Origin: a virus
Virus record (IMG/VR): IMGVR_UViG_3300027920_000641
Reading direction: 5' to 3' (one strand)
DNA: 64,000 nt
This document shows positions 10,639 to 54,298 of this stretch, one piece after another (position 1 is the stretch's first letter; the number at the start of each line of letters is the position of its first letter). The position numbers and the translations under genes were made by a program. The notes beneath the pieces were generated by a model. The model did not search any database and was not told the origin of the DNA. It saw only the letters and a list, made by a program, of their open reading frames with translations.

Positions 10639-10647
10639 AATTCCCCC

Positions 10648-31415: not shown

Positions 31416-33890
31416 ATGAAAGATAGCTTGTCGAAAATACACCTCAACATGATCGTCGGTGACTTCGAGTCACCAGAAACTCTTGATAGATCCATAAACT
31501 CAGTGAAAAAGTACGTAGACGATATCTACGTTACTGTCACTTACTCAGACAAAATCCCTACTAAAAAGTCCAAATTAATTATTCTGCTCAAGAAGCATAA
31601 GGCTCATATATCATATTTCAAATGGGTATACGATTTTTCTGCTGCTCGGCAGTTTGCTCTAGATCAAGTTCCTGTTGCTCCAGACAGCTTAGTTTACTGG
31701 CAAGACACAGATGACGTCCTAGCCAATGGTGAGTCTTTAAGAAGCATTGCCGATGAAATGGTTGAGCGCCAAGTTTCTGCCACATACTTTGACTACTGGT
31801 ACCAGGTTGAGCTCGATGAAAAAGGAGAAGTTGCTGAGATTTTAGTTAAGCATAGAAGAGAGCGCATTATTCGTCACGATAATACTTGGAAATGGGTGGG
31901 CGCTCTTCACGAGACCCTAATAGAGCAGAAGCAAGAGAATCTTATCAGGGAATTCAGGCCAGAGTGTTATGTGGTTCATCTACCAGCAAATACTCATGCC
32001 GATGTTAATATTGAGAGAAACATTGAAATATTAGAAGAGACCGCGAAAAAACAAGAGGGCAAGGATCCAAGAACTCTTATTTATCTGGCTAAGGCATACT
32101 TTGACAAAGCCAAGATGTCTGTAGGCGATGATAGGAAGATCTATTCGAATCTAGCCCTAACACTTTTCCATGACTATTTAGAGGGAAGCGGTAAGCCTGG
32201 AACAGAAGATTATCGACCTGCCTCTGGTTGGAAAGAGGAGCGATCTAGTGCCTATTCCTATGTTGCGGAAATAGCGCTGTTGTCTCAGTCTCCAGAGATT
32301 GCTATTCAGGCGTATCTTTCTGCTATCACGGAAGCTCCAGAGTTTCCAAACTACTATGTTGATCTAGCAATGGCTTACCTAGCTACTAATGACTATAAGA
32401 AAGCAAAACACTGGCTTAGGGTTTCAACCGCTGTTCCTCAGCCATCGACAACTATGATCACATTCCCAAGAGAGTTGAAGACTAGGGCTCTCGAGGTTTC
32501 TTTCCAGATTAACCTACATGAAGGAAAATTTGATGAAGCGGTACAAGACTGCGAAATGCTTGCTAAGATACTTCCTAAAGATGAGGTTATAAAAGATAGG
32601 CTCAAGACAGTGATTGCCCTTGGAAACCTAAACAAGGCTTGCCAGTCTGCTGTCTTTCTTGGAAAATATCTAGAGTCAGTCGGAGAACCAGAGAAAGTTC
32701 CTCATCTGATCAAGTCGTTCTCTAAAGATATGGAAAAAGAGAAGTTTGCCTCAGAGATGAGACATCGCTTCAATCCAGTTAGAAGATGGGAAGAAGATGA
32801 ACTAGCTATTCTTTGTGGCCCTGGCTATGAGGAGTGGACTCCAGATTCAATAAAAACTGGTCTTGGTGGTAGCGAGGAGGCAGTTGTTTATCTCTCCAAT
32901 GAGTTGAAGAAGCTCGGTTGGAAAGTGACTGTCTATGCTAACCCAGGTGGTAAGGCTGGAGATTTCGATGGCGTCAAATATGAACCATGGTATAACCTTA
33001 ATCCTCTGGATTCCTTCAATGCATTAGTCTTGTGGAGAGCTATTGGGTTTGTAGACGTTAACCCAAGAGCAAAGTTCACTATGCTATGGCTCCACGATGT
33101 TCCAAACAATCCAGATTTTACTCAAGAAAGAGTCGACAAGGTTGACAAAATAGCTGTATTATCAGAGTACCACCGATCGCTACTTCGCGTGTATAAGGAT
33201 GGAGAGTATATCCCTATGCCTGATGATAAAGTTTTCTTGACAGGTAATGGAATTCCCGAACTTGGACTAGAAACCTGGCATGGCAACCCTAAGAAAATTA
33301 TCTATGCCTCATCTATTGACAGGGGCCTAGTTTATTTGCTGAACAATTGGAAGAGGGTCATTGCAGAAGTTCCAGAGGCAGAGTTACATGTCTACTATGG
33401 TTTCGAGATTTTTGATATTATGCACCGAGACAACCCAGAGAGAATGAGGTGGAAAGAGCAAGTTCTTGGGCTAATGAACCAGCCTGGTATTATCTACCAC
33501 GGTAGAGTTGGACACGAGGAGCTGAATAAGGCATATAATAGTAGCGGTGTATGGGCGTACTCTACCGACTTTACGGAGATCAGCTGTATTTCCGCGATGA
33601 AAGCTCAGGCGCTGGGTGCTATCCCAGTAACAATGACTTTGGCTGCTCTCGATGAGACAGTTAAGAATGGTGTCAAAATTGATGCAGATATCACTTTGCC
33701 AGAGGTACAGGCGGAATATGCTGATGCTCTGATCAAGGTTTTGAAAGATGAAAAATATCAAGAAAGAATTAGAAAAAACATGATGGTCTGGGCTCGCAAA
33801 CAGTTTGCTTGGAGTAATGTTGCTGCAATTTGGGATGAGACTATGCGCGTCTGGGTTCAGAATCCAAATAAACATTGGGAGTTTAAGTAA
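31416..33890 (+). CDS. multidomain glycosyltransferase: N-terminal GT-A (GT2-like, DxD) + central TPR repeats + C-terminal GT-B (GT4-like)
   Basis: N-terminus YVTVTYSDK...WQDTDD; TPR-like LIYLAKAYFDKAKM / YVDLAMAYLATNDYKKAKHWL; C-terminus GHEELNKAYNSSGVWAYSTDFTEISCISAMKAQALGAIPV, a GT-B EX7E-type motif. Confidence 0.65.
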   Translation: MKDSLSKIHLNMIVGDFESPETLDRSINSVKKYVDDIYVTVTYSDKIPTKKSKLIILLKKHKAHISYFKWVYDFSAARQFALDQVPVAPDSLVYWQDTDDVLANGESLRSIADEMVERQVSATYFDYWYQVELDEKGEVAEILVKHRRERIIRHDNTWKWVGALHETLIEQKQENLIREFRPECYVVHLPANTHADVNIERNIEILEETAKKQEGKDPRTLIYLAKAYFDKAKMSVGDDRKIYSNLALTLFHDYLEGSGKPGTEDYRPASGWKEERSSAYSYVAEIALLSQSPEIAIQAYLSAITEAPEFPNYYVDLAMAYLATNDYKKAKHWLRVSTAVPQPSTTMITFPRELKTRALEVSFQINLHEGKFDEAVQDCEMLAKILPKDEVIKDRLKTVIALGNLNKACQSAVFLGKYLESVGEPEKVPHLIKSFSKDMEKEKFASEMRHRFNPVRRWEEDELAILCGPGYEEWTPDSIKTGLGGSEEAVVYLSNELKKLGWKVTVYANPGGKAGDFDGVKYEPWYNLNPLDSFNALVLWRAIGFVDVNPRAKFTMLWLHDVPNNPDFTQERVDKVDKIAVLSEYHRSLLRVYKDGEYIPMPDDKVFLTGNGIPELGLETWHGNPKKIIYASSIDRGLVYLLNNWKRVIAEVPEAELHVYYGFEIFDIMHRDNPERMRWKEQVLGLMNQPGIIYHGRVGHEELNKAYNSSGVWAYSTDFTEISCISAMKAQALGAIPVTMTLAALDETVKNGVKIDADITLPEVQAEYADALIKVLKDEKYQERIRKNMMVWARKQFAWSNVAAIWDETMRVWVQNPNKHWEFK

Positions 33891-33901
33891 AAGGAGGTTA
33901 T

Positions 33902-34102
33902 ATGCAATTTAATGAACCAAAATCTACAACGGGGGAATGTCCTGTTTGTCATAAGCCAGTGATTAGAAGAACAACTAGGGGTGGAGTAAACTTCTGCTCT
34001 AGGGTGTGTGCTAGTGCCCCAAAGTATGCACAGCGCTACCGCGGAAGCTCGTCTGGTCCACTGGATAGACCAACAATGGTATCAAAAACTAAATTAGTAT
34101 AA
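33902..34102 (+). CDS. zinc-ribbon protein
   Basis: CPVCHK...FCSRVC; AAGGAGG RBS. Confidence 0.5.
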   Translation: MQFNEPKSTTGECPVCHKPVIRRTTRGGVNFCSRVCASAPKYAQRYRGSSSGPLDRPTMVSKTKLV

Positions 34103-34114
34103 AGAAAGGACTGT

Positions 34115-34333
34115 ATGCCCGATAATAACCCAGTAACAGTAAGCGAGGAGATTGCAGACTTATTAAATCTATCTCTAGCTCTAGCTAACGCCGTAGAGTA
34201 TCGCTTCATGGCTCCAGATCATGGGGCGATCATATGGAAGAAGTTTTTACGCTCTTCCTCTATTGACGTACAAAAAGTAGAAGTCGTAAAAGAAGATAAG
34301 AAAGCCTTGAAAGGAGGAGTCTATGTTAGTTAA
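34115..34333 (+). CDS. hypothetical protein
   Basis: ORF track 72 aa. Confidence 0.45.
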   Translation: MPDNNPVTVSEEIADLLNLSLALANAVEYRFMAPDHGAIIWKKFLRSSSIDVQKVEVVKEDKKALKGGVYVS

Positions 34334-34817
34334 AAAAGTTAACCCAGATTGGATGCCGTCTGAGAATCCAGGTATCAAAGTTGGAGAGACCATTGAAATT
34401 ACCAATCCGAGACAACTTGTACTAGATGGTACTGTAGTTGCCGTTGGTGAACATGGTGAGGAGCAAAGTCCATATGAGTTGTATGGTGTGTTAGTAGATG
34501 CCGAACTTGAAGAGTTTAAAGAATTCGCTAAGATGAAGCAAGCAAACGCTTTAAAGAAGAGGTTGGAATCAGAACAAGAGGATTTGCAAAAACTCTCCGC
34601 TGAGTTAGATAAAAAAGAAGCTATGGTTACTCCAGCTGCGCCTGCCCCTGCGCCAGTAGCTGCCCCAGCTACGGTAGAACCAGTCGCTCCAGCTACTAGT
34701 GAGCCAGTTAGATATACCGATGCTACAGCATGGTCAGAGCTTGTAAAAGCTGGTAATGCCCGTGGTATATATAAAGTCGGTATGAACAAAAAAGAGCTTG
34801 TTGCTGCTCTAAACTAG
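34323..34817 (+). CDS. hypothetical protein with Ala/Pro linker
   Basis: ORF track 164 aa; AAGGAGGAGTCT-ATG; the opposite-strand 180-aa ORF is a low-complexity shadow. Confidence 0.5.
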   Translation: MLVKKVNPDWMPSENPGIKVGETIEITNPRQLVLDGTVVAVGEHGEEQSPYELYGVLVDAELEEFKEFAKMKQANALKKRLESEQEDLQKLSAELDKKEAMVTPAAPAPAPVAAPATVEPVAPATSEPVRYTDATAWSELVKAGNARGIYKVGMNKKELVAALN

Positions 34818-34830
34818 AAAGGAGGGGACT

Positions 34831-35712
34831 ATGGCGATAAAGAATCGTCAAACGATCCTTTTTATCTATGACATGGAACCAGAAATGGTTCCGCTATGGA
34901 AAGACGGCTTGTGGGCCGCTCTTCAGATTCTCAGGAAAGATTTCAGCGTAGTAATGGTGAATCTGCAAGAAAAACCTGGTTTTGATTCCCTGGCCACCAC
35001 AAATGGTTCGAAGATATTTGCGCTTGCCTGGGGGGCATTTGGTAGTAGACCAGAACAGTTCTTGTTTGGTCGCCCGAATCAGTTCTATGCAGCTCGCGGT
35101 TTGTGTCTAGCTGGTTATTCTCTTCCATCGCTTGGGTTAACTAATAACTACGATGTCGTATTCTACGAAAACAACTGGGCGCTGGAGTGGTTGAAATCTC
35201 CCCAAGTAAGTCGGGTGTTTAAAAACGAGCCAGCCTTGGTTCATGCCTTTGGAGTTAATACCAATATTTTTAAACCAGACGATGCTTTAAAATACGGAGC
35301 TAATGCACCAGTTTTAGATTATCTCTCAGTTGGTAGCTTTTCATACTGGAAACGTCATCAGAACTTAATTCAGAAAAAAGGAGTTAGACTGGCTGTTGGA
35401 CAAGTTCAGAAAAACAACCTTGTTGAATCGGTAGATATAATGGGTCAGCTTATGTTGAACGGTGTGGGTGTGATGGATTCCATTGAACCGTGCAAGCTGC
35501 AAGCACTTTACAATTTGGCTAACGTTGTTTATATTGGTGCTGAACTAATGGGCGGTGGTGAGAGAGCAGTTTTAGAAGCTAGGGCTTGTGGCAGAAACGT
35601 AGAGATAGAAAAAGACAACCTAAAATTAGCAGAATTGCTTCATTCTCCCATTTGGGATGAGGAATATTATGCGTATAGTCTTCGAGAGGCTATAACAAGT
35701 GCCATTTTGTAA
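34831..35712 (+). CDS. glycosyltransferase-like protein (GT-B C-terminal-like)
   Basis: AAAGGAGGGGACT-ATG; NLANVVYIGAELMGGGERAVLEARACGRNVEI resembles the GT-B donor-binding motif. Confidence 0.4.
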   Translation: MAIKNRQTILFIYDMEPEMVPLWKDGLWAALQILRKDFSVVMVNLQEKPGFDSLATTNGSKIFALAWGAFGSRPEQFLFGRPNQFYAARGLCLAGYSLPSLGLTNNYDVVFYENNWALEWLKSPQVSRVFKNEPALVHAFGVNTNIFKPDDALKYGANAPVLDYLSVGSFSYWKRHQNLIQKKGVRLAVGQVQKNNLVESVDIMGQLMLNGVGVMDSIEPCKLQALYNLANVVYIGAELMGGGERAVLEARACGRNVEIEKDNLKLAELLHSPIWDEEYYAYSLREAITSAIL

Positions 35713-35769
35713 TAAAAAGCCGTTTTTGAGCCTTACACGGGCTCGTCTCGAGTAAAAAAGTATGAAAAT

Positions 35770-36363
35770 ATGTTATCTATAGTCATTCCGACCTATACAT
35801 TGAATAAAGAGCTAGAGGAACTAGCAATAAGATGCCTTCTCAGTTACAAAGACTATGCCGACGAAGTGATTGTAACGGAAGATGGCGGAATGTTTTCTCC
35901 AATGTTAATGGAAATGTCCGATCATTATATTTATAACAAAAAGAATGTCGGGTTTACACGAAACGTGAACACTGGTTGGAGATTTTCTAGTGGCGACTAT
36001 ACTGCCATCATTAACTCCGACACAGAGTTAACTAGTGGCAATTTGGCTGATTTGTGTATTCCTGGAAAAGTAACGAGCCCACATATTTCTAACCAATATA
36101 TTGATAGACTAGCTGGACCGTTTTTTGTAGTTCCTGAAACGGTGAAAGAAGAGCGTGGTCTTTTGATCGAAGATATGAAAACCTATTCATCAGATTCTGA
36201 GTTTGACGCGAGGGTAGCTGACATCTTTATGAAGGTTCCTTCTGTAGTTATTTACCACGAGCAGGCACAAACAGTAAAAGCGGCTGGGGTTGAGGGTGGT
36301 GCAGAACAAGCTAGGGATAGGGAAATTTATGCTCAGCTCATAAGGGACGGAAAGGCAAAATGA
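35770..36363 (+). CDS. family-2 glycosyltransferase
   Basis: MLSIVIPTYT N-terminus, VTEDGG, NVGFTRNVNTGW, as in the GT-A fold. Confidence 0.65.
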   Translation: MLSIVIPTYTLNKELEELAIRCLLSYKDYADEVIVTEDGGMFSPMLMEMSDHYIYNKKNVGFTRNVNTGWRFSSGDYTAIINSDTELTSGNLADLCIPGKVTSPHISNQYIDRLAGPFFVVPETVKEERGLLIEDMKTYSSDSEFDARVADIFMKVPSVVIYHEQAQTVKAAGVEGGAEQARDREIYAQLIRDGKAK

Positions 36364-37025
36364 GAAAGCCCACTGCTCATTGCATTGATTGCGATAAGCT
36401 AATCTGGACATCACACAACCAGCTTCGTTGCAAATCTTGCTCTTTGAAAGGATCATTAAACCCTAATTGGAATCCACATCGAATTAGAACTTGCAAACTA
36501 TGTGGGTCTAAGGTCAGTAAAAATAGTAGCGGTTTATGTCAGCCTTGTTATAGGAGAAATATCCCAACTAAATTAGAAAATCCGTTGTCAAAGGGGAGAT
36601 ATCAGCCCTGTTTAGTCTGTGATCAACCAGTCTGGGTTCCTCCTTGTTATTTTGGGATTAAAAAGTTATGTAGCTCGAAATGTAAAAGCATATACTGGTC
36701 ACAAAAAACAGGTGATAAGAATTTTAACTGGAGGGGCGGTTCCTCCTTTGGCAATTACCCATCTGGATTTAATCGAATCTTAAAAGAAATTATCAGGAAA
36801 AGGTGCGGCAGAGTATGTTTGGGGTGTGGGAAAATGGAAGAGGATGAGTTAAGATCATTAAATAAGAAATTATCAGTTCATCACGTTGATTATAATAAAG
36901 ATAATTTAAATTTAAACAACTTAATATTGTTGTGCTCTTCTTGTAACAGTAAGGCCAATGCTAACAGACCGAGTTGGACATATTATTATCAAGTAAGATA
37001 TGGATTATTACAATATGAAAATTAA
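36360..37025 (+). CDS. HNH endonuclease with multiple zinc ribbons
   Basis: CIDC..CKSC, CKLCG..CQPCY, then LSVHHVDYNKDNLNLNNLILLCSSCNSKAN as the HNH motif. Confidence 0.75.
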   Translation: MRKPTAHCIDCDKLIWTSHNQLRCKSCSLKGSLNPNWNPHRIRTCKLCGSKVSKNSSGLCQPCYRRNIPTKLENPLSKGRYQPCLVCDQPVWVPPCYFGIKKLCSSKCKSIYWSQKTGDKNFNWRGGSSFGNYPSGFNRILKEIIRKRCGRVCLGCGKMEEDELRSLNKKLSVHHVDYNKDNLNLNNLILLCSSCNSKANANRPSWTYYYQVRYGLLQYEN

Positions 37026-37449
37026 TTTAGGAAGTGGAACAGATTACAGAAAGGGATGGATTAATATTGAGGTGTCTAAAGATGTAAAGGCAGATTATTA
37101 TCTTGACGTTGCGAAAGAAGTGTTGCCGTTTGCCGATGGTTCTATCGATCATATAGAAGCTATAGACTTGTTTGAACATATTTTATATCCTATTTTCACA
37201 TTCAATGAATGTTGGAGAGTTTTAAGAAAGAATGGGACAATGTATATTGAAGTACCCTATGGAGGTACAGAGGATTACTATAAAGATCCAACTCACGTGA
37301 GACCTTTTATCCCAAAAACATTCAAATATTTTGCGGAGTGGAATACCTCTCCAGCTTATGGAATCAAAACATGGGAAATTATTAGAATCCACTCAACATT
37401 GGGCGGAGAAAATCAAAATAGAATTTATGTCACCATGAGAAAACCATGA
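37000..37449 (+). CDS. class I SAM-dependent methyltransferase (Methyltransf_11-like)
   Basis: INLGSG (motif I), LPFADGSIDHIEAIDLFEHI, VLRKNGTMYIEVP (post-II/III). Confidence 0.65.
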   Translation: MDYYNMKINLGSGTDYRKGWINIEVSKDVKADYYLDVAKEVLPFADGSIDHIEAIDLFEHILYPIFTFNECWRVLRKNGTMYIEVPYGGTEDYYKDPTHVRPFIPKTFKYFAEWNTSPAYGIKTWEIIRIHSTLGGENQNRIYVTMRKP

Positions 37450-38270
37450 CAATCTATCTTAATTGTGAAGATAACAAGATCACGCTAAATAAGAAAAACT
37501 ACCTGATGAGGGCAGCTGAGCAGATGGGTATTAACGTTTTTTTCCAGTGGACTCCTCCCTGTGAAGCTGAATTTGTTCTTAATATTGAGCCATACTCCAC
37601 TCTAAGAACTGGAACCAAATGGACTGGGGCATGGTGGATAGACACGCTCTTAGACAATGTTAGATTCAATACTGAGTTTTCTTATATAGATACAATCTTT
37701 CTCGCAGGCAATTCCCATAGGATAGAGCCCAGAGATAATCATCGGCTGCTTTTCCAAGCTGCGGATTCTGAGATTCATAGACCAGTGGCAGTAGAAAAAG
37801 ACTGTGACTTCATTTTAGCTGGGTCTATGGGTCTAGACATTTATAGGGAAAGAGAGGCCGCAATCAAAGCACTTAGAAGTGAGGGTTTTGTTTTTGTAGG
37901 AGCGGGGAAAGACTTTGCTCCCAATGAATATGTTAAACAATTGAATAGGGCAAAAGTCCAGTTTATTCGTTCAATGGATGTTGATGGCCATGGTGAAGTT
38001 GCTCAAAGATTTTTTGAATGCCTAGCTATTGGCCCAGTGCTTACTAATTGGACGGATGACTTAGTCCACACTGGCCTAGTTGAGGGAGTTGATTACTTAG
38101 CATATCGTACTATTGATGAGCTTGTGCAAAAAATGCACATGTTGGTAGATGATCATAGTTATGCTCAGAAAATTGCAGAAAATGGTAGATACAAGTCGAG
38201 GCTATATCATACATACCAACATAGGGTTCTAACCATTATGGAAGTAATAAGGGAATATTCTTTGCCATGA
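37446..38270 (+). CDS. glycosyltransferase, GT-B fold (Glycos_transf_1-like C-terminal domain)
   Basis: RFFECLAIGPVLTNWTDDLVHTGLVEGVDYLAYRTIDELVQKMHMLVDD matches the E..A.G.PV...DG GT1/GT4 signature. Confidence 0.5.
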   Translation: MTIYLNCEDNKITLNKKNYLMRAAEQMGINVFFQWTPPCEAEFVLNIEPYSTLRTGTKWTGAWWIDTLLDNVRFNTEFSYIDTIFLAGNSHRIEPRDNHRLLFQAADSEIHRPVAVEKDCDFILAGSMGLDIYREREAAIKALRSEGFVFVGAGKDFAPNEYVKQLNRAKVQFIRSMDVDGHGEVAQRFFECLAIGPVLTNWTDDLVHTGLVEGVDYLAYRTIDELVQKMHMLVDDHSYAQKIAENGRYKSRLYHTYQHRVLTIMEVIREYSLP

Positions 38271-38815
38271 TAGATAGTGACCACTCTAAAAAACAAGATC
38301 TTTTCTGGGAGCATTGGGTTGGCCCAATGAACCATTCGGTTAGAAACAAGCGTTTCTTCTGGTGTCTTGAGAAAATGAAGGAGCAAAAGATTAAAACAGT
38401 GATGGATGTTGGGTGTGGTCCAGGATGGCACACAAAGATACTTTTTGATTCTGGCTATGATGTAACTGGCAGCGATATAAGTATCGAGGCAATAAAAATA
38501 GCTAGAGAGAATTTTCCAGATTTGAAATTTCTAGAAATATCTGCTGAGGCCATCGATGGAAGATTCGATGCCATTATTTGTTTGGCAGTACTTAGCATGG
38601 TTGAAGATGACGACAGGGCTGTTCGCCAGCTGGCAAGACATGCACAACTAGGCTACTTTTCTTTACCTACCTACGCAGACCACGAGTTGCACTTGAGGAA
38701 ATATGATCTAGAAAGTGCTAAGAGGCTAATGGAGAAGTATGGAGAAATTATCAATATCGAGATTATGGGTGACCAAGTAATGGTAGAGATAAGATTCTAT
38801 GATAAAACTATTTGA
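38267..38815 (+). CDS. class I SAM-dependent methyltransferase
   Basis: VMDVGCGPGWHTKILFDSGYDVTGSDIS (motif I plus acidic loop), FDAIICLAVL. Confidence 0.8.
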   Translation: MIDSDHSKKQDLFWEHWVGPMNHSVRNKRFFWCLEKMKEQKIKTVMDVGCGPGWHTKILFDSGYDVTGSDISIEAIKIARENFPDLKFLEISAEAIDGRFDAIICLAVLSMVEDDDRAVRQLARHAQLGYFSLPTYADHELHLRKYDLESAKRLMEKYGEIINIEIMGDQVMVEIRFYDKTI

Positions 38816-39647
38816 ACTATACCAGCCACCAGAAGTAGAGATTGCGATCTCGCAAGTTTTAAAGAGTGGCAGATATGTGAAGGGTCCACTTGCTATAGAG
38901 TTCGCTCGGGTTTGGGCAGCTCGGTGTGGAATGAAATACGGAGTATCTGTTGGAAGTGGCGCCCAGGCGCTAGAACTGGCTATACGGGCAGTTTTTGGAG
39001 ATGGGAGATCAACTATTACCTATACTCCCCATACCTTTAAGGCAGTTCCTAACGCAATCAGATTAATGGGTCACATCGCTATCGGACAGCTTTATGAACC
39101 GATGTTATATGCACACCATATCCATGATCACAAACTGGACTATGTTCCATTTCTTGAGGATTGCTCTCATTGTCATGGAGTTGAGCCAGTTGCTGAGACG
39201 GCTATTTTTTCCTTATTTCCAGCAAAAATACTGGGAGCCGTTGGAGAAGCTGGGGTGATTGTAACTAACAACATAAATGTTTTCAAGTTTTGTTCCCAAC
39301 TGGCAGATCATGCTGAACCAGATGGTACAAATGCCAGAATGGATGAAATTCAGGCGGCAGCCCTACTGGCTAAGTTACCGTATTTAGATAGATGGACACA
39401 AAGAAGAAAAGAAATAGTCAAAATGTATGATGCTGGACTTGGGATGCATACCCCTGGGGAGTATCACTACATGTACTGTATCGATGGAAACCAGGGTATG
39501 GTTGATAAGTTATTGTCATTTGAAATTGAATCCAAACTAGTCTATAATGAACCATACGTAGCCCTGCCATTCTACCCAGAATTGACTAATGAACAGGTGC
39601 GAGAAATCATAAGATGCGTCACTCAATTATCGGAAACGGCTTTATAG
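38799..39647 (+). CDS. DegT/DnrJ/EryC1/ArnB-family sugar aminotransferase (short form)
   Basis: VLKSGRYVKGPLAIEFARVWAARCGMKYGVSVGSGAQALELAIRA is the DegT N-terminal signature; FSLFPAKILGAVGEAGVIVTNN is the PLP-Lys region; 282 aa versus about 370 typical. Confidence 0.6.
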   Translation: MIKLFELYQPPEVEIAISQVLKSGRYVKGPLAIEFARVWAARCGMKYGVSVGSGAQALELAIRAVFGDGRSTITYTPHTFKAVPNAIRLMGHIAIGQLYEPMLYAHHIHDHKLDYVPFLEDCSHCHGVEPVAETAIFSLFPAKILGAVGEAGVIVTNNINVFKFCSQLADHAEPDGTNARMDEIQAAALLAKLPYLDRWTQRRKEIVKMYDAGLGMHTPGEYHYMYCIDGNQGMVDKLLSFEIESKLVYNEPYVALPFYPELTNEQVREIIRCVTQLSETAL

Positions 39648-40423: not shown

Positions 40424-40425
40424 TA

Positions 40426-41169
40426 ATGAAAATAAGTGTAGTAACACCAAGTATAAGAAAGGAAGGACTTTATGTCGTCAAAGAAGCTCTCAAAAGGCAA
40501 ACAAACCAGGACTTCGAATGGCTCATTGGGAGCTCGTTCGATCCAAAAATACCAGATGGGATCTGGGTTAGAGACGATTTTCTGGGTGGGTATTGGTCTC
40601 TTAACCGTATTTACAATCGGCTTTTTAGCAGGGTATCAGGTGAAATTGTGGTTTCCTGGCAAGATTGGATATACGCCGATAGAGAAGCCCTTGATAAATT
40701 CTTGTTCAATGTCTCCAGAGTATCAGCAGTGGTATCAGGAGTCGGTGATCAATATGAAAGAGTCGGACAGTTCGGCAAACCTGAAATAAAAATATGGTCT
40801 GATCCAAGAAAGACCGACAAATATGGCAGTTTCTATGAATGCAATCCGAGTGATGCCGAGTGGAATTTCTGTGCTTTCCCCACTTCATTTATCTATGATG
40901 TGGGGGGTTTTTGTGAAAAGTTAGATTGGACTGGGTTTGGAATGGATGGATATCAGGTTAATGAGAGATGGGATCTTTTGGGTTATAAATTTTATCTTGA
41001 CCAAGCTAATGAGTCTTATACTATTAGGCATGATAGAAGTGCCCATGGAGGAAAGGAAAACTGGAATCAAAATAATAATCTTTCAAATGGTCAATATGAA
41101 AAGGTTCGTCAGGAGTTTATTAATAAGGGAGAATGGCCAAGAATGAAATATTTAGGCATTAATAAATAG
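40426..41169 (+). CDS. family-2-like glycosyltransferase
   Basis: MKISVVTPSIRKEG N-terminus of GT-A type; 247 aa. Confidence 0.5.
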   Translation: MKISVVTPSIRKEGLYVVKEALKRQTNQDFEWLIGSSFDPKIPDGIWVRDDFLGGYWSLNRIYNRLFSRVSGEIVVSWQDWIYADREALDKFLFNVSRVSAVVSGVGDQYERVGQFGKPEIKIWSDPRKTDKYGSFYECNPSDAEWNFCAFPTSFIYDVGGFCEKLDWTGFGMDGYQVNERWDLLGYKFYLDQANESYTIRHDRSAHGGKENWNQNNNLSNGQYEKVRQEFINKGEWPRMKYLGINK

Positions 41170-41174
41170 TTGCT

Positions 41175-41909: not shown

Positions 41910-41924
41910 TTAGTGTGATATGAC

Positions 41925-42768: not shown

Positions 42769-42769
42769 T

Positions 42770-43006: not shown

Positions 43007-43027
43007 TAATTTTTCGGAATAACCAGA

Positions 43028-43885
43028 GTGGCATTGTTAACAATCATAATTCCATCGAAAACTGAGCGTTTTTTAGAAAAGACGATTCGTGATGTTCTGC
43101 TCAACGCAACTGGTGATATTGAGATTTTACCTATTCTAGATGGTTACAGTGTCCCAAAAGAGGAGTTTGTTGATGACGCTCGAGTCAGGTATCTTTCGAT
43201 GCCTCCATCAAAACATACTCAAAAACGACAGGGTATTAATCTTGGAGTTGCAGAGGCAACTGGTGAGTATGTGATGTCTCTTGATGCGCACTGTTTGGTG
43301 GCCAGAGGTTTTGATGAACAATTAATTAAGGACCACCAACCAAACTGGGTGCAAATCCCTCGTAGACACAGGCTTGACGCAGAAAAATGGGACTTACAAC
43401 CACAGGGGGATAAAAGACCGCCTATTGATTATGAATATATTATGTTTCGTCCACTAATTTCAAAAGATCAAATGGGTTTGCACGGTTTCAAGTGGGAATC
43501 AAAGACCATTGAAAAAATGGATATACCCATCGATGACACAATCACTTTCCAGGGTTCCTGCTGGTTCATGACTAAAGACTGGTTTAATAAAATGGGTTTC
43601 ATGGATCTTGCCTACACGGGTTGGGGTCAAGAGGCAGAGGAAATCAGTTTTACTACCTGGAAGAATGGCGGTAGAGTAGTGACTAACAAGAATACTTACT
43701 ACGCTCACCTTCACAAGGGGGCTAAGTATGGGCGCATGTACTGGATGAGTCGAGATGAAAATCGTAAGAGCTATGCATATTCTTCCGATTTCTGGTTGAA
43801 TAAAAACAGGGACTTTTTTATTAGTTTAGTAGAAAAATTTATGCCCATGCCAGGGTGGCCAAAGGATTGGAGAAAGTTATTATGA
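43028..43885 (+). CDS. family-2 glycosyltransferase (DAH-motif type)
   Basis: LLTIIIPSKTERFL, ILPILDG, MSLDAHC, QGSCWFMTKDWF; paralogous to the N-terminal domain of 45930..47534. Confidence 0.65.
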   Translation: MALLTIIIPSKTERFLEKTIRDVLLNATGDIEILPILDGYSVPKEEFVDDARVRYLSMPPSKHTQKRQGINLGVAEATGEYVMSLDAHCLVARGFDEQLIKDHQPNWVQIPRRHRLDAEKWDLQPQGDKRPPIDYEYIMFRPLISKDQMGLHGFKWESKTIEKMDIPIDDTITFQGSCWFMTKDWFNKMGFMDLAYTGWGQEAEEISFTTWKNGGRVVTNKNTYYAHLHKGAKYGRMYWMSRDENRKSYAYSSDFWLNKNRDFFISLVEKFMPMPGWPKDWRKLL

Positions 43886-44490
43886 ATGCACTAGATTATT
43901 TTGTTGACAAATATAAAATAGATTTGAGTCAGCCTTCTCCTATTTTTGTTCCAATCGGTAGGTTCAAGGATATCCCAAAACTTTTTGCAGAGCTTGGATA
44001 TACTGAAGGCGCCGAGATTGGGGTATATCGAGGTAGTTATAGTGAAACTCTACTTAAAAGAATCCCTAATTTGCACCTTATTGGAGTCGATTTGTGGGAG
44101 ACTTATCGGGGTTATAAAGATTTCTCTTCAACAGATATAGTTGATGCCGAATCAGAAGCCAGAGAACGTACCAAAAAATACAATTGTCAGATGGTTAAGG
44201 GGTGGAGTGACGAAGTTGCAAAAACAATTCCCGACGAAAGTTTGGACTTTGTTTTTATTGATGGCAATCATAACTACGAATGGTGTGTATGGGATCTTGC
44301 TAACTGGTCGAGAAAAGTTAAAAAAGGCGGTATTATTTATGGGCATGATTACGATGACTATTCTAGGTCGAAACGGTGGGCAGAGATGCAAGTTATTCCA
44401 GCGGTAAACGGATGGATGGAGGCGAAAAAAATTAGTCCCTGGTTTGTAATTACAAACAATAAGAATCGTTGCTGGATGTATGTTAAATAG
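43855..44490 (+). CDS. class I SAM-dependent O-methyltransferase (Methyltransf_24/TylF-like)
   Basis: GAEIGVYRGSYS, LIGVDLWE, DFVFIDGNHNYEWCVWDL, GGIIYGHDY. Confidence 0.65.
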   Translation: MAKGLEKVIMNALDYFVDKYKIDLSQPSPIFVPIGRFKDIPKLFAELGYTEGAEIGVYRGSYSETLLKRIPNLHLIGVDLWETYRGYKDFSSTDIVDAESEARERTKKYNCQMVKGWSDEVAKTIPDESLDFVFIDGNHNYEWCVWDLANWSRKVKKGGIIYGHDYDDYSRSKRWAEMQVIPAVNGWMEAKKISPWFVITNNKNRCWMYVK

Positions 44491-45166
44491 GGTTTCAATC
44501 ATTATCCCAGTTTATCAAAGTCACGAAATCGTAAGAAGGCAGTTGCTTTATTTGGATCGACTAAGTCTTCCGATCGAAGTAATTATAGTTGATGACAATT
44601 CAACTCCGCCTATTGACGGGGCAACATTACGGATGAACAACGATTTAGCATGGACACAGGGACTTGCCCGTAATGCTGGAGCAGAGTATGCATCTGGGAA
44701 TTATTTGTTTATGACAGATATAGACCATATTCTTTCGAAAGAAGCCATTGAGGATGCCCTAGTTTTCACGGGAAATAAAATGATATTTAGAAGACAAATA
44801 GCCATACTCGATGAAAACGGAGAAATTAGACAAGACAGTACCACCCTGGAGGATTGGGGTTACGAGAATAAAAACCTAGGCGCCTCTGTTCATGGAAATA
44901 CGTTTGTAATTAAGAAGACGGTTTTTGATGAACTTGGTGGCTATGACGAGCATGCTTGTACTAGAGGGTATCACCCTGTTTCTAGGAGTGGCGATGATTG
45001 TTTTTTTAACTCTAAATGGAATAAGAAATATAGGGGGGAAGCTCCAGCCGTTGGAAGAGATATTTATATGTTTCCCATCGGTCGATTTCATAAAAATGGC
45101 GATCTAAATCCGAAGGGCCTATTCCATAATTTAAGTCAAAGCAAGCAAGAAAGGATGTACAAATGA
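44480..45166 (+). CDS. family-2 glycosyltransferase
   Basis: VSIIIPVYQS, EVIIVDDNS, GLARNAGAEYASGNYLFMTDIDHIL (DxD). Confidence 0.8.
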   Translation: MLNRVSIIIPVYQSHEIVRRQLLYLDRLSLPIEVIIVDDNSTPPIDGATLRMNNDLAWTQGLARNAGAEYASGNYLFMTDIDHILSKEAIEDALVFTGNKMIFRRQIAILDENGEIRQDSTTLEDWGYENKNLGASVHGNTFVIKKTVFDELGGYDEHACTRGYHPVSRSGDDCFFNSKWNKKYRGEAPAVGRDIYMFPIGRFHKNGDLNPKGLFHNLSQSKQERMYK

Positions 45167-45948
45167 ACAAAGCGATAATTGGCTATGGCTGGGTTGGAAA
45201 GGCGATGAGCGTCCTTTTCCCAGATGCTTTTATTTATGACCCATATTATTTTGACGATTCTGGTTCTGTTTTTTTGAGTGATCAAAATGTCGTTAATGAA
45301 TGTGATGTTGCTTTTATATGTGTTCCGACTCCAAGTATTGACGGAGGGAAACTGGATGTCTCTATTGTGGAAGAAATTGTTGGCTGGTGCAAATGCCCAC
45401 TGATTGTTATCCGCTCTACTGTCAACCCAGGAACCTGTGATTATCTTGCAAAAAAGTATAATAAGCGCTTAGTGATGCAACCAGAGTATTTAGGAGAAAC
45501 CATTAACCACCCGATGACCGACCAAAAAACTCGTCCATTTCTAATCATCGGTGGTGAACCCGATGACCGAAGAATGCTGATTGATCTTTACACATCAGCT
45601 TATAACGCTAACATCAACATCCGACAAGTAACTGCTTATGAAGCAGAAGTTATCAAACTCTCTGAGAACAGAGCTATAGCCTTCAAAATTGCTGAGTGTC
45701 AGGAGTTATATGATGTCTGTATGGCCTCAGGCGTTGATTACTATGTTATAAGAGAGGCGGTTTATTCTGACGACCCGCGCTTTAACCTATGGTGGACATT
45801 CATTTATCCAGAAAGAAGGGGGTTCAATTCCAAGTGTTTGCCAAAGGATGTATACGCTTGGGCAGCTTGGGCAGAATCAGTCGGTTATAAACCAGCGGTA
45901 ACAAGAGCATTGCTTGAAAGGAACAAACAATGGACCTCTCAATTTTAA
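45163..45948 (+). CDS. UDP-glucose/GDP-mannose dehydrogenase-family protein (short, WbpA-like)
   Basis: IIGYGWVGKA NAD motif, CDVAFICVPTPS, catalytic-Cys motif FNSKCLPKDV; 261 aa, so the C-terminal UDP-binding domain is absent. Confidence 0.6.
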   Translation: MNKAIIGYGWVGKAMSVLFPDAFIYDPYYFDDSGSVFLSDQNVVNECDVAFICVPTPSIDGGKLDVSIVEEIVGWCKCPLIVIRSTVNPGTCDYLAKKYNKRLVMQPEYLGETINHPMTDQKTRPFLIIGGEPDDRRMLIDLYTSAYNANINIRQVTAYEAEVIKLSENRAIAFKIAECQELYDVCMASGVDYYVIREAVYSDDPRFNLWWTFIYPERRGFNSKCLPKDVYAWAAWAESVGYKPAVTRALLERNKQWTSQF

Positions 45949-47534
45949 TTCCAGCAAGATCAGAAATGTTCTTAGCAAGAACAATACAGGATTTATTAGA
46001 ACACATCGAGGGTAATACCGAGATACTGGTCGGCCTCGATGGAGCTTGGGCTGACCCTCCTATTACCGACAACCCGAAAGTTACTATAGTCCATGTCTCA
46101 GAGGCTATTGGTCAAAGAGCCATGACTAATCAGTTGTGTCGCCTTTCTAAGGCAAAGTATGTGATGAAGGTAGATGCTCATTGTGCGTTTGATCAGGGGT
46201 TCGATGTCAAGATGATAGCGGATATGCAAGATAACTGGACAATGGTTCCAATTATGCGCAATCTTCACGCGTTTAACTGGGTTTGTTCTGAAGGGCACAC
46301 TCGTTACCAGGGACCCTCTGGTGCCTGTGAAAAATGTGGAAAAGAAACAACTAGAGATATAGTATGGATTCCTAAAACCAATCCTAGTAGTACCTCATAT
46401 TGTTTTGATCCAGAGCCGCATTTTCAATATTTCGGTGAATTCAAAAATAGACCAGAGGGAAAAGGGGATTTAACTGAAACAATGAGCCTCCAGGGTTCAT
46501 GTTTTATGATGACTAGAGATAAGTATTGGGAGTTGAATATCAGCGACGAGGAGTTTGGTTCATGGGGCAGTCAAGGAATAGAAGTAGCCTGTAAAACATG
46601 GCTGTCTGGCGGTCGCGTCGTAGTTAATCATAAAACATGGTACGCTCACCTGTTCAGAACACAAGGTGGTGATTTTTCGTTTCCTTATCCCCAGTCTGGG
46701 AAAGCTGTCAGTAATGCCAAGAAGAAAGCAAAAGATCTCTTTTTTAATAATAAATGGGATAAACAGATTCATCCCCTATCATGGTTAGTAGAAAAATTCT
46801 GGCCAGTACCAGGTTGGACTGAAAATGATCTCAAATCTCTTAAGAAAGAGCCAACCAAAGGGGTTCTTTATTACTCAGACAACGCCCTCAATATGCGCTT
46901 AGCCAGTAGAGTACGTCAACAAATTCAGAAATCAGGACTACCAGTCACCTCGGTCACTCTCAAACCGACTCCTTTTGGTAAGAATATAGTTATTAAAGAA
47001 CCAAGGGGTTACTTGACTATGTTTAAGCAAATTCTTGCTGGTCTTGAAGCAATGACTGAAAACATTGTCTATTTCTGCGAACATGATGTCCTATACCATC
47101 CAGATCATTTTAAGTTTACACCAGAAGATCAGTATAAGTTTTATTACAATGGCAACTACTGGTTTGTCAGATTGAAGGATGGCTTTGCTATTCACTATGA
47201 TGTCAGTCCTCTTTCTGGCCTTGTTGGTTATCGAGAGCAACTTATTGTCCATTTCAAAGAACGCGTTAGTATGATAGAAAAATTAGGAGACGAGTATAAA
47301 CCGCTTCATATGGGTTTTGAACCAATGACCCATAAGCGAATCAAGTGGAATAACTGGTTTGAGTATGAGATATTTATGCCAGAGAATCCGAATATAGACT
47401 TGGCGCACGAAGGCAATTCTACTTGGAAGCGGTGGAAACAAAAAGACTTTATTAAAAAACCAGCATTTTGGGAAGAAGGCACAATAGATACTATCCCAGG
47501 ATGGGAAAGCATAAAAGAAATTTTGAAACAATAA
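45930..47534 (+). CDS. family-2 glycosyltransferase (DAH-motif type) with large C-terminal extension
   Basis: LSILIPARSEMFL, ILVGLDG, MKVDAHCAF, QGSCFMMTRDKYW; 534 aa. Confidence 0.6.
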   Translation: MDLSILIPARSEMFLARTIQDLLEHIEGNTEILVGLDGAWADPPITDNPKVTIVHVSEAIGQRAMTNQLCRLSKAKYVMKVDAHCAFDQGFDVKMIADMQDNWTMVPIMRNLHAFNWVCSEGHTRYQGPSGACEKCGKETTRDIVWIPKTNPSSTSYCFDPEPHFQYFGEFKNRPEGKGDLTETMSLQGSCFMMTRDKYWELNISDEEFGSWGSQGIEVACKTWLSGGRVVVNHKTWYAHLFRTQGGDFSFPYPQSGKAVSNAKKKAKDLFFNNKWDKQIHPLSWLVEKFWPVPGWTENDLKSLKKEPTKGVLYYSDNALNMRLASRVRQQIQKSGLPVTSVTLKPTPFGKNIVIKEPRGYLTMFKQILAGLEAMTENIVYFCEHDVLYHPDHFKFTPEDQYKFYYNGNYWFVRLKDGFAIHYDVSPLSGLVGYREQLIVHFKERVSMIEKLGDEYKPLHMGFEPMTHKRIKWNNWFEYEIFMPENPNIDLAHEGNSTWKRWKQKDFIKKPAFWEEGTIDTIPGWESIKEILKQ

Positions 47535-47535
47535 C

Positions 47536-47922
47536 ATGTATAATGCAGAAATAAAAGCATCAATTTTAAGTTTTTGTATACTCTTAATTATAAGTCCATT
47601 AGCAGTACATAATCAAGTGAATGATTATCGTATAGAAAATAAGTTACAACCGTTAGTATTTAATAAGAGTTTGTGTAAAGTAGCAGAAGTACGAGCGAAT
47701 CAGATACAAACAGATTGGTCACACAAAAGTTTTTTTAAAGAAGTAAAAAAAATTAAATATGCACAAGCTGGTGAAAATTTAGCAAAAGATTTTAATAATG
47801 AAGAAGATTTAGTAAATGCATGGATAAACTCAAAAGCGCATAGACAAAATTTATTAAGACCATATACACGGCATTGTATAGCTTGTGTTAATAATCATTG
47901 TGTACAAATACTTATAAGGTAG
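47536..47922 (+). CDS. secreted CAP/SCP/PR-1-like (YkwD-type) protein
   Basis: Signal peptide, then GENLAKDFNNEEDLVNAWINSKAHRQNLLRPYTRHC matching the SCP-like GEN...W..S.gHr.N.L pattern; strongly AT-rich codon usage. Confidence 0.55.
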   Translation: MYNAEIKASILSFCILLIISPLAVHNQVNDYRIENKLQPLVFNKSLCKVAEVRANQIQTDWSHKSFFKEVKKIKYAQAGENLAKDFNNEEDLVNAWINSKAHRQNLLRPYTRHCIACVNNHCVQILIR

Positions 47923-47942
47923 CAAATTAATAAAATTATTTT

Positions 47943-48617
47943 ATGAAAAAAACAATTTTCACTTTAAATGTTAATAGTTACTCACCAGAAATAACAACAC
48001 TTACATATCCTCTTATTCATAAGTATGCTGAAAAAATAGGTGCTGATTTTTATGTTATTTCAAAACGTAAATATCCAGATATGCCTGTAACATATGAAAA
48101 ATTGCAAATTTATGATTTAGCAAGAGAAATGGGCAATGATTGGAATATTTATCTTGATTCAGATACATTAGTACATCCAGATACAGTTGATTTTACATCT
48201 TTAATTTCTAAAGATACAGTTATGCACAATGGTGCAGACATGGCAAGCATTCGCTGGAGATATGATAATGTATTTTTGCGAGATGGTAGAGATATTGGAT
48301 CATGTAACTGGATGGCAATTGCTTCTGATTGGTGTTTAGATCTTTGGAGTCCACTTGATATTCCGCTTCAAGAAGCGTTAAATAATATTTTTCCTACAGC
48401 AAATGAATTGCAAACAAATATTACTAAAGAACATTTAATCGATGACTATACTTTGTCAAGAAATATCGCGCGATATGGATTAAAATTTATTACAGCAAAG
48501 GATGTAATGAAACAAAAGGGTATTGAGGCTGCTAATTTTTTCTGGCATCAATACACATTACCAACAGATGAAAAGGTGGTGGAAATTAGAAAAATAATTA
48601 AAGCGTGGGGGATATAA
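47943..48617 (+). CDS. putative GT-A-fold glycosyltransferase-like protein
   Basis: YLDSDTLV DxD-like motif; AT-rich like the preceding gene. Confidence 0.35.
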   Translation: MKKTIFTLNVNSYSPEITTLTYPLIHKYAEKIGADFYVISKRKYPDMPVTYEKLQIYDLAREMGNDWNIYLDSDTLVHPDTVDFTSLISKDTVMHNGADMASIRWRYDNVFLRDGRDIGSCNWMAIASDWCLDLWSPLDIPLQEALNNIFPTANELQTNITKEHLIDDYTLSRNIARYGLKFITAKDVMKQKGIEAANFFWHQYTLPTDEKVVEIRKIIKAWGI

Positions 48618-54240: not shown

Positions 54241-54268
54241 CCACCTAATAAAAGAGGTGGTTTTTTTT
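54241..54268 (+). terminator. rho-independent terminator
   Basis: ccacct-aataaaag-aggtgg followed by T8. Confidence 0.75.
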
Positions 54269-54298
54269 ATTACTAAGCGCTTATTACAAGGAAATTCT

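Follow-up and report, generated by a model that had tools for sequence, protein, structure and literature searches.

The viral record IMGVR_UViG_3300027920_000641 of IMG/VR, a stretch of 64,000 nucleotides (the window) that is a fragment of a tailed-phage genome, holds a dense island of glycosyltransferase (GT) and sugar-tailoring genes at positions 31416–48617, among its structural genes. We read this island as a phage-encoded, cytoplasmic protein O-glycosylation system that would be expressed with the late genes and would use serine- and proline-rich (Ser-Pro) tails of virion proteins as acceptors; judged from sequences and structural models, the probability of this reading is about 0.65. 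The island consists of two modules with different histories. Module A, the core, extends from 31416 to ~42768 and follows the capsid gene across the whole phage clade; module B, a mobile cassette (43028–47534), comprises a GT2 enzyme, a Methyltransf_24 protein, a second GT2 enzyme, a short dehydrogenase and a 534-aa GT2 enzyme. An earlier interpretation of the letters and translations alone (the sequence-only reading) had proposed glycosylation of virion proteins with Ser-Pro repeat fibres as acceptors. That proposal is supported, though not proven, by cassette enzymes resembling polypeptide N-acetylgalactosaminyltransferases (ppGalNAc-Ts), by the linkage of such enzymes to Ser-Pro repeats, by the likeness of the lead enzyme of the core to protein glycosyltransferases, and by the absence of membrane segments. 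The genes on which the argument turns, named here by their first position, are the following.

31416..33890, + strand: 824-aa fusion of GT-A, TPR-like and GT-B domains, lead gene of the core (Pfam TPR and Glycos_transf_1)
43028..43885, + strand: ppGalNAc-transferase-like (GT27-like) GT-A enzyme, first gene of the cassette (Pfam GT2, weak Glyco_transf_7C)
43855..44490, + strand: Methyltransf_24 protein, sugar O-methyltransferase type (Pfam, E 2.2e-17)
44480..45166, + strand: GT2 glycosyltransferase (Pfam Glyco_tranf_2_2 and Glycos_transf_2)
45163..45948, + strand: short NDP-sugar dehydrogenase-like protein, 261 aa (Pfam UDPG_MGDP_dh N-terminal and central domains)
45930..47534, + strand: 534-aa two-domain GT, ppGalNAc-T-like N-domain and second GT-A-like domain (Pfam GT2; AlphaFold2 pLDDT 87.5)
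49535..54157, + strand: 1540-aa LamG/DUF2341 protein with Ser-Pro linkers and a 572-aa Ser-Pro tail, 445 Ser in total, upstream of the adaptor gene; proposed acceptor
60404..62002, + strand: 532-aa DUF2341/LamG protein with a 174-aa Ser-Pro tail, in the tail-fibre block (Pfam LamG_3 and DUF2341); proposed acceptor

The cassette enzymes 43028 and 45930 are paralogs and, as judged from their sequences and for 45930 also from its modelled fold, are ppGalNAc-transferase-like. A Foldseek comparison of the 45930 model with the PDB placed ppGalNAc-Ts in 48 of the 50 top matches; the other two were K4CP, a polymerase with two GT-A domains. Searching with the 45930 family profile gave 16 PDB matches, 15 of which were ppGalNAc-Ts and the sixteenth GalT1 of Streptococcus pneumoniae. 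The profile of the 43028 family matched the ppGalNAc-T catalytic domain over positions 5–262 (E 1.7e-10). The DxH motif of the GT27 family is present as KVDAHC in 45930 and as SLDAHC in 43028; neither family alignment shows any variation in it, and its counterpart in GalNAc-T1 is LDAHC. The Gal/GalNAc-T motif (WGGEN.E...W.CGG ... H.FR) was likewise found: WGSQGIEVACKTWLSGGRVVVNHKTWYAHLFR in 45930 aligns to GalNAc-T1, the 43028 protein has WGQEAEEISF...YAHLHK, and both window proteins thus carry WG...E...W..GG...AH.FR/HK. Neither a ricin-type lectin domain (Pfam) nor a type II membrane anchor was found, there being no transmembrane segment in either protein. The 45930 family had no match among 50,697 deposited phage records, and this signature GT is present on 219 IMG/VR contigs. 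Literature searches on GT27-like enzymes or Ser-Pro fibres in phages and in the ultra-small bacteria of the candidate phyla radiation (CPR) yielded nothing specific.

The five cassette genes occur together in 18 viral contigs that have no other window genes within 10 kb, the exceptions being one distant portal match (L024) and scattered weak partial matches. This distribution marks the cassette as a mobile unit. To relate it to its possible substrate, homologs of 45930 were searched without repeat information, and a nearby open reading frame (ORF) with SxSPS repeats was scored afterwards; a locus was taken as not evaluable when its contig ended within 2 kb. A same-strand SxSPS ORF accompanied the homolog in 66 of 69 evaluable viral loci (96%), mostly less than 1 kb downstream (79 loci in total, 10 not evaluable). 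Among 80 genomic loci, 22 of them not evaluable, the count was 46 of 58, with 45 of these ORFs lying downstream at a median gap of 705 bp. Control loci from the clade that lack the GT had such an ORF in 3 of 35 cases (Fisher p = 6e-20 against the viral set and 1e-11 against the genomic set). Contig breaks at the repeat probably explain the loci that were not evaluable. The Ser-Pro ORFs of the genomic set reached 2609 aa.

The gene order around the cassette points in the same direction. In phages of ~34–45 kb (L152, L183 and L198) the portal, scaffold and major capsid protein (MCP) genes and two small genes are followed by a minimal cassette and a Ser-Pro fibre gene; the Ser-Pro proteins of these phages measure 843–1112 aa. 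L024 has its cassette and Ser-Pro fibre gene, in that order, between portal and adaptor. Two further kinds of protein bear Ser-Pro tails: a homolog of the nozzle (L177) and, in L088/L167, a protein with a domain in common with 59095, which is encoded in the tail region of the window. Taken together, the gene contexts argue strongly for a joint function of cassette and Ser-Pro segments and for a structural role of the Ser-Pro proteins.

The Ser-Pro repeat fibres described in the sequence-only reading as lying directly downstream of the island are real: 49535 and 60404 both combine LamG_3 and DUF2341 domains with Ser-Pro tails. These tails contain 56% Ser and 21% Pro, and 0.3% Thr. In 49535 the tail includes 14.7 copies of a 54-bp unit, which translates to SPSQSPSQSPSLSPSSSV, and the C-terminal end of the protein reads ...YSKLAYFDNEVGYYIRMIGHIPYYKKVIE, similar to that of L140. 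Comparable Ser-Pro repeats are absent from the other window proteins, and no signal peptide or membrane anchor was found in 49535 or 60404. In pattern searches for viral relatives the N-terminal 360 residues of 49535 and the adaptor each gave none, both sequences being too variable. Within the two tails a stretch of 296 bp (52991–53281 versus 61460–61750) shows 87.5% DNA identity, as would be expected if the two fibre genes had recombined or undergone gene conversion. Many cellular and viral Ser-Pro proteins (L066, L078, L124, L097, L106, L137, L148 and L169) end in one of a few short conserved modules after the tail, such as ...KTVNGL...VNGL.W.. and ...G..GFN.ET..LE.YDG..W...; these modules could be attachment or receptor-binding tips.

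The lead gene of the core, 31416, had been taken for a GT-A/TPR/GT-B fusion, and this description agrees with the Pfam matches (TPR and GT) and with the domain layout of the AlphaFold2 model (pLDDT 86.7). The model comprises a GT-A domain (residues 1–190), a helical TPR-like region (195–455) and a GT-B domain (460–815), and Pfam places TPR_2 and TPR_19 at residues 296–335 and the GT-B domain at 484–788. The best Foldseek neighbours in the PDB were all protein or peptide glycosyltransferases: Arabidopsis SPINDLY (E 1e-16), SunS/ThuS (target-normalised TM-score 0.57–0.69), and the OGTs of human, fly, Thermobaculum and Xanthomonas. The architecture of the GT41 enzymes OGT and SPINDLY, a TPR array followed by GT-B, is found in 31416. 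Its catalytic domain is not that of GT41: the GT-B half matched Glycos_transf_1, Glyco_trans_1_4 and Glyco_transf_4 and no GT41 model, and there is an extra N-terminal GT-A domain. Going by the model, 31416 may work like SPINDLY, OGT or SunS, and it is not assigned to their family.

More than 120 full-length homologs of 31416 have at least 50% identity, and several of them carry inteins, which suggests a gene under strong constraint and a highly conserved insertion site. The orthologs P0018, P0070 and P0081 are ~1170 aa long, with intein and LAGLIDADG domains (Pfam PF14890 and PF14528); an intein within a phage glycosyltransferase is unusual. The gene recorded in the database for the 31416 product starts 11 codons later. 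Twenty IMG/VR contigs of up to 100 kb encode MCPs that are 72–84% identical to that of the window, and in 15 of these 20 the 31416 ortholog follows the MCP gene and two small genes, in the order seen in the window (where the small proteins are 30426 and 30815). The orthologs of 31416, 34831, 35770 and 40426 are kept between MCP and adaptor even in relatives with a nozzle identity of 38%, and the accessory gene content of the core varies. In a 74-kb relative, for instance, the DegT is full-length, the GTs include one of the TOD1/MUCI70 type and another GT1, the methyltransferases are different ones, and the adaptor gene follows the island directly.

These data can be brought together in the following scheme. 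Module A would be the ancestral core of the clade and would initiate and build glycans on one or more virion proteins, with its methyltransferases and the DegT/GFO pair tailoring nucleotide sugars in this phage. The 43028 enzyme and the N-domain of 45930 would add the first sugar to serines of the SxSPS repeats, for which (SPSQSPSLSPSSSV)n is the repeat-peptide form of a candidate acceptor; the second GT-A domain of 45930 and the GT2 enzyme 44480 would extend the glycan, and the Methyltransf_24 protein may O-methylate it. An oxidised sugar donor would come from the short dehydrogenase, which, with the oxidoreductase and the aminotransferase, could diversify the nucleotide-sugar donors. The acceptors are predicted to be the Ser-Pro tails and linkers of 49535 on the head side and 60404 on the tail side. 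Densely glycosylated mucins extend by ~0.25 nm per residue. At that spacing the 572-residue tail would form a brush of more than 100 nm, and the glycosylated tails may be stiff, mucin-like brushes that project from the virion and display a host-like surface glycoprotein. Gene content, the likenesses in fold and motifs, the lack of membrane components, the place in the structural module and the genomic linkage are observed; from these we infer the glycosylation itself, as well as the modified residues, the sugars, the virion localisation and the host.

Several points weigh against this scheme. All of its support is drawn from gene context, sequences and structural predictions. One GT-A fold looks much like another, so that a ppGalNAc-T-like fold fixes neither the donor nor the acceptor. 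The likeness of 31416 to OGT and SPINDLY is partly architectural, its GT-B half being of the GT1/GT4 and not the GT41 type. The DegT protein (282 aa) and the dehydrogenase (261 aa) are unusually short, and their activities are predictions from sequence. The position of 49535 as a head-side fibre is predicted from gene order (before the adaptor) and one weak PHROG match. A scan for promoters and terminators returned counts at chance level and left the transcription units undefined, which speaks against assuming co-transcription. Finally, contig 3300025018_000141 carries a large core island and no Ser-Pro protein in the 42 kb sampled. Since the core occurs in relatives without a Ser-Pro protein in the sampled regions, the Ser-Pro fibres cannot be the only acceptors, and possibly they are no acceptors of the core.

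The genomic loci with 45930 homologs belong overwhelmingly to metagenome-assembled genomes (MAGs) of Patescibacteria (CPR), on contigs of up to 455 kb. Woesebacteria, Saccharibacteria, Paceibacterota, Zambryskibacteria, WWE3, Levybacteria, Collierbacteria and other groups are represented, along with a few DPANN archaea. On a 168-kb contig an island of GT, methyltransferase and epimerase genes of at least 12 kb is followed by a Ser-Pro protein of at least 2660 aa that reaches the contig end, and on a Collierbacteria contig SPS repeats fused to a Gly_rich_2-like domain, the domain also present in 48619 of the window, lie downstream of the 45930 homolog. The sequence-only reading had regarded synteny with a host capsule or lipopolysaccharide (LPS) locus, together with glycan-free virion proteins, as a sign against itself. 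Synteny of the cassette with Patescibacteria loci was indeed found, and the capsule/LPS character was not, the neighbours being giant Ser-Pro proteins. Because the host loci are Ser-Pro protein loci, the synteny strengthens the protein O-glycosylation reading rather than refuting it. In two CPR loci (L057 304–1615 and L066 1213–1986) the cluster of GT and methyltransferase genes ahead of the Ser-Pro gene is itself immediately preceded by a TatC gene; in L057 there are TatA-type genes as well, and the cellular Ser-Pro proteins have no obvious signal peptide.

The main competing explanation is host-surface remodelling by auxiliary metabolic genes, in which the enzymes would act on host glycoproteins or envelope glycans and the LamG/Ser-Pro proteins would be host-surface adhesins that alter attachment or exclude other phages. 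The homologous GT/methyltransferase clusters with giant Ser-Pro proteins on cellular Patescibacteria contigs of 168–455 kb are in line with it, as is the hydrophobic N-terminus of the CAP-domain protein 47536 of the island. A groundwater virome study also reported GTs and ConA/LamG proteins as frequent in CPR phages and read these as aids to host adhesion (PMC11310336). However, the phage's own Ser-Pro genes adjoin the cassette in the head-to-tail structural block, likewise in many other phage contigs, and Ser-Pro tails occur on the nozzle homolog and on the protein related to 59095 by a shared domain. Moreover, the phage Ser-Pro proteins are without signal peptide or anchor, no export, flippase or polymerase genes are present, and no integrase was found in the window. 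We consider host-surface remodelling unlikely on these grounds.

In favour of protein O-glycosylation over the synthesis of a free glycan, none of the island enzymes has a transmembrane segment (the 19-residue hydropathy maximum is below 1.6 for every one), and the island contains no Wzx, Wzy, flippase, polymerase, ABC exporter or initiating phosphoglycosyltransferase. Without membrane segment, flippase, polymerase or phosphoglycosyltransferase, the chemistry is most simply cytoplasmic and directed at soluble acceptors. An O-antigen, serotype-conversion or capsule locus is likewise not what the island resembles: it lacks integral-membrane components such as GtrA/GtrB, no integrase was found among the window ORFs scanned, and it lies between capsid and adaptor genes. 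An exopolysaccharide, capsule-like or lipid-linked product, with the Ser-Pro repeats as unmodified flexible linkers, could still be argued from the GT2, GT4, aminotransferase and dehydrogenase genes, which as a set are typical of O-antigen and capsule loci, from the chondroitin polymerase K4CP, which aligns over both domains of 45930, and from the NCBIfam matches, which are at superfamily level only. This explanation gives no reason why the signature GT adjoins a Ser-Pro ORF in 96% of the evaluable viral loci, and the top structural neighbours of 31416 and 45930 are protein glycosyltransferases; taken with the missing membrane components, this makes it quite improbable. Glycosylation of modified phage-DNA bases against restriction, a classical role of phage GTs with diverse DNA-glycan systems known (as cited in PMC12619734), is very improbable, given that no base-hydroxymethylase or related gene was seen among the larger ORFs scanned in the window, which is part of a genome, that the island sits in the late structural block and not in the replication block, and that a protein GT with TPRs, enzymes of the ppGalNAc-T-like kind and a linkage to Ser-Pro proteins do not suit a DNA substrate.

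The presence of the unit of cassette and Ser-Pro protein in Patescibacteria genomes makes a CPR bacterium the probable, or at least a plausible, host of this phage. Two pairs of loci, L088 = L167 and L103 = L206, are 100% identical over their overlap and join IMG/VR contigs (44,615 bp and 21,821 bp) to Paceibacterota and Woesebacteria MAG contigs, respectively. Some genomic loci are therefore phage contigs binned with CPR MAGs, which calls for caution on MAG purity; their presence there is a weak hint at the host. GT27 enzymes have been studied mainly in eukaryotes. A broader and more tentative proposal, which we put forward as possible though rather doubtful, is that a prokaryotic equivalent of mucin-type O-glycosylation is common to CPR phages and the bacteria they infect, with an enzyme family related to GT27 whose soluble, ppGalNAc-T-like members start dense O-glycans on giant SxSPS repeats, and that the phages dress capsid and tail in mucin-like brush fibres modelled on the host glycoprotein coat.

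Compared with eukaryotic mucin-type O-glycosylation, what 43028 and the 45930 N-domain have in common with the GT27 enzymes is the catalytic GT-A domain with its DxH and Gal/GalNAc-T motifs, and the putative acceptor is here, too, a Pro-containing tandem repeat rich in hydroxy amino acids. The phage enzymes differ in having no ricin-type lectin domain, anchor or Golgi context, in place of which 45930 has a second GT-A domain; among the hydroxy amino acids of the repeats Ser is nearly alone (0.3% Thr), and the identity in the Foldseek alignments is ~15–17%. The glycosylation of serine-rich repeat proteins (SRRPs) in Gram-positives, by GtfA/GtfB and with an accessory Sec system, is similar in that long Ser-rich repeats encoded beside the enzymes would be O-glycosylated by several cytoplasmic GTs, and pneumococcal GalT1, the only match of the 45930 profile in the PDB that is not a ppGalNAc-T, belongs to that pathway. 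In contrast, the repeats here are SxSP and not SAS[A/T], the setting is a virion module, and no GtfA/GtfB-specific match, SecA2/SecY2 or membrane protein was found in the island. With respect to OGT/SPINDLY (GT41) and SunS/ThuS, 31416 joins a SunS-like GT-A domain and helical repeats to TPR and GT-B; having two catalytic domains in one chain sets it apart from these enzymes, and the query-normalised TM-scores are low (0.24–0.32).

Among viruses, the Mimivirus fibril clusters and the chlorovirus Vp54 system combine virus-encoded multi-gene nucleotide-sugar tailoring, GTs and methyltransferases, and the coating of the fibrils is proposed to be independent of host machinery. The make-up of the gene cluster is similar here, whereas the viruses, hosts and enzymes are unrelated and the present case is a tailed phage of ~65–100 kb. 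In tailed phages, glycosylation of mycobacteriophage virions is to our knowledge the only precedent shown experimentally. Glycans were located at the C-termini of capsid and tail-tube subunits (Freeman et al. 2023, as cited in PMC12619734 and PMC12801897), and one announced F1-cluster mycobacteriophage genome encodes two GTs (PMC11256854). The present phage, which is uncultivated, differs in having 8–9 GT proteins, sugar-tailoring enzymes, dedicated Ser-Pro domains and other enzyme families. The cyanomyovirus S-SCSM2R encodes 13 GTs, which were read as enzymes of cell-wall or DNA modification (PMC12801897). A similar layout is present in GenBank MW202524 (MW202524.1, L219; Podoviridae sp. ctKR88, Manatee Spring), a circular podovirus genome of 42.6 kb: at 1656–11978 the MCP gene, a small gene and a homolog of the 824-aa GT (32% identity over 98% of the query) are followed by further GT and methyltransferase genes before the tail genes. 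Its island is smaller (~9 kb) and has no gene of the 45930 family; automatic names given to its genes are 'beta4glucosyltransferase', 'gtA', 'yqgM-like' and 'has synthase'. The one Manatee Springs paper found does not discuss this core layout, and the word glycosyltransferase does not occur in it. In view of the mycobacteriophages, the cyanomyovirus with 13 GTs and MW202524, the statement of the sequence-only reading that the island has no close precedent in tailed phages was too strong. What appears to be new is the scale of the island, the soluble ppGalNAc-T-like initiators, the dual-domain TPR glycosyltransferase and the dedicated Ser-Pro domains, and also how widely the unit recurs, in hundreds of phage contigs as well as in many CPR genomes.

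Should the Ser-Pro fibres prove to be glycosylated, no virion-glycosylation system of a tailed phage would come near this one in size; it would also be widespread, and the glycan brush on the virion would affect adsorption, antibody recognition and particle stability. The soluble ppGalNAc-T-like enzymes and their simple repeat would form an enzyme–substrate pair that can be tested and that might become a tool for making mucin-like glycoproteins in bacteria. The unit is also a possible marker for phages of CPR bacteria; it points to unexplored surface glycoproteins of these organisms, which depend on attachment to other cells, and it would offer a data point on the origin of mucin-type O-glycosylation.

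The remaining genes of the island and its flanks are listed below.

24064–26217, + strand: SU10_portal (Pfam)
29417..30247, + strand: MCP, upstream boundary of the island (Pfam SU10_MCP, E 3e-57)
34323..34817, + strand: 164-aa protein, no Pfam, PHROG or NCBIfam match, partial homologs in relatives
34831..35712, + strand: divergent GT-B of the core, no match of its own, orthologs matched, conserved in 13–16 relatives
35770..36363, + strand: GT2 of the core (Pfam Glycos_transf_2, E 3.5e-10), orthologs of 180–204 aa in relatives
36360..37025, + strand: HNH homing endonuclease, selfish insert outside the pathway (Pfam HNH, E 3.4e-6)
37000..37449, + strand: small S-adenosylmethionine (SAM)-methyltransferase-like protein (Pfam Methyltransf_11, C-terminal half only)
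37446..38270, + strand: GT-B-type glycosyltransferase (Pfam Glyco_trans_1_2, E 1.6e-14)
38267..38815, + strand: SAM methyltransferase (Pfam Methyltransf_11, _25 and _23)
38799..39647, + strand: compact DegT-type sugar aminotransferase, 282 aa (Pfam DegT_DnrJ_EryC1, E 1.3e-32)
39614..40423, + strand: GFO/IDH/MocA sugar oxidoreductase (Pfam GFO_IDH_MocA N- and C-terminal domains)
40426..41169, + strand: divergent GT2 (GT-A) of the core, assigned via orthologs, conserved down to the distant relatives L047, L049 and L051
41175..41909, + strand: HNH homing endonuclease (phrog_1271, E 4.5e-19)
41925–42404 and 42352–42768, + strand: two small ORFs, no family matches (Pfam, PHROG, NCBIfam), homologs in L039 and L041
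47536..47922, + strand: CAP/SCP-domain protein with hydrophobic N-terminus (Pfam CAP, E 4e-12; hydropathy maximum 2.26 at residue 6)
47943..48617, + strand: 224-aa protein, putatively GT-A-like (only Glyco_transf_21, E 0.004, below cut-off)
48619..49533, + strand: Gly_rich_2 domain protein (Pfam Gly_rich_2, E 4.8e-10; phrog_863)
54257..54982, + strand: adaptor, downstream boundary of the head block (Pfam SU10_adaptor; phrog_6013 tail protein)

Genes on the minus strand extend across ~1–15 kb of the window, and a long plus-strand block runs from ~15 kb to its end. The placement of the island between capsid and fibre genes holds: an SU10-type MCP lies upstream, the adaptor and tail genes lie downstream (Pfam/PHROG), and portal, MCP and adaptor follow one another as in the structural module of SU10-like podoviruses. 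Beyond the adaptor, matches to tail and tail-fibre PHROG families were found. The island genes are co-directional as had been claimed, and their number was revised: instead of 19 genes there are 21 non-nested ORFs of at least 100 aa, all on the plus strand and tightly packed or overlapping, plus ~3 small ORFs. Two HNH endonuclease genes (36360 and 41175) and the CAP-domain gene 47536 had been missing from the list.

Pfam hidden Markov model searches assigned most ORFs to the families expected from the translations, so the sequence-only assignments did not fail at this level; the verified content is 8 GT proteins, 3 methyltransferases, a DegT, a GFO/IDH/MocA and a short NDP-sugar dehydrogenase. 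The earlier count of at least nine GT-like proteins thus stands for eight, namely 31416, 35770, 37446, 43028, 44480 and 45930 by direct Pfam matches and 34831 and 40426 via orthologs; it does not stand for 47943, which gave nothing in PDB or NCBIfam searches and whose GT identity was not confirmed. All three proposed SAM methyltransferases (37000, 38267 and 43855) have Pfam matches, as does the sugar-tailoring set of DegT (38799), GFO/IDH/MocA (39614) and short dehydrogenase (45163). Profile–profile comparisons with the window's own GT2 and GT-B families were uninformative for the families of 40426 and 34831, and Pfam scans per ortholog were used instead. In the 34831 family these found Glyco_trans_1_4 in 7 and Glycos_transf_1 in 6 of 15 orthologs, and in the 40426 family GT2 in 3 of 7; the 40426 family profile also matches SpsA weakly (E 0.018). 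The partial Methyltransf_11 pattern of 37000 is repeated in its L043 ortholog, and Methyltransf_24 accompanies the 45930 homolog in 60 of 80 genomic and 54 of 79 viral loci.

The short forms of DegT and dehydrogenase were also considered as pseudogenes, and this was rejected: both keep catalytic residues and the short length of the dehydrogenase is conserved across many contigs. In 38799 the Asp, His and Schiff-base Lys positions align with those of a 398-aa DegT, and its nearest NCBIfam model is PseC, below the cut-off of that model. The 45163 dehydrogenase retains GxGxxG and the catalytic Cys (SKCLPKD motif) and is without the C-terminal domain; the short form recurs at 252–265 aa in other contigs and is present in 28 of 79 viral cassette loci. 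A family of such 'half' NDP-sugar dehydrogenases of ~255 aa (L021, L022, L024, L025, L027, L036, L152, L183 and L198) retains the Rossmann motif, and the domain it has dispensed with is the one that binds the nucleotide sugar. A WbpA/B/E pathway label for the dehydrogenase, GFO and DegT trio was dropped, all NCBIfam matches being far below their cut-offs. No island protein but the CAP/SCP/PR-1 protein 47536 begins with a hydrophobic segment, a possible signal peptide or membrane anchor; a copy of 47536 with 37% identity lies elsewhere and on the opposite strand in the relative L043.

No tRNA genes were found in the window, no integrase among the window ORFs scanned, and no nucleotide match to the island in a megablast search of deposited phages. 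The nearest cultured phages are distant, with ~30% MCP identity to Pelagibacter phage HTVC106P and Bruynoghevirus. A near-identical phage (L039) was found in run SRR32414321, and the identical cassette on contigs from SRR8204323 and SRR8204324. The window carries free-standing homing-endonuclease genes, one LAGLIDADG, four HNH and one EndoVII/NUMOD3, at 27949–28464, 28695–29201, 36360–37025, 41175–41909, 14015–15016 (minus strand) and 18293–18766; two of them lie between the scaffold and MCP genes and two inside the island, and L039 has another set (HNH_3 genes at different positions). In or near the early region an RtcB RNA ligase (17043–18260), an SPFH/Band-7 protein (3784–4614, minus strand) and a pentapeptide-repeat protein (626–1150, minus strand) are encoded, which may have counter-defence functions.

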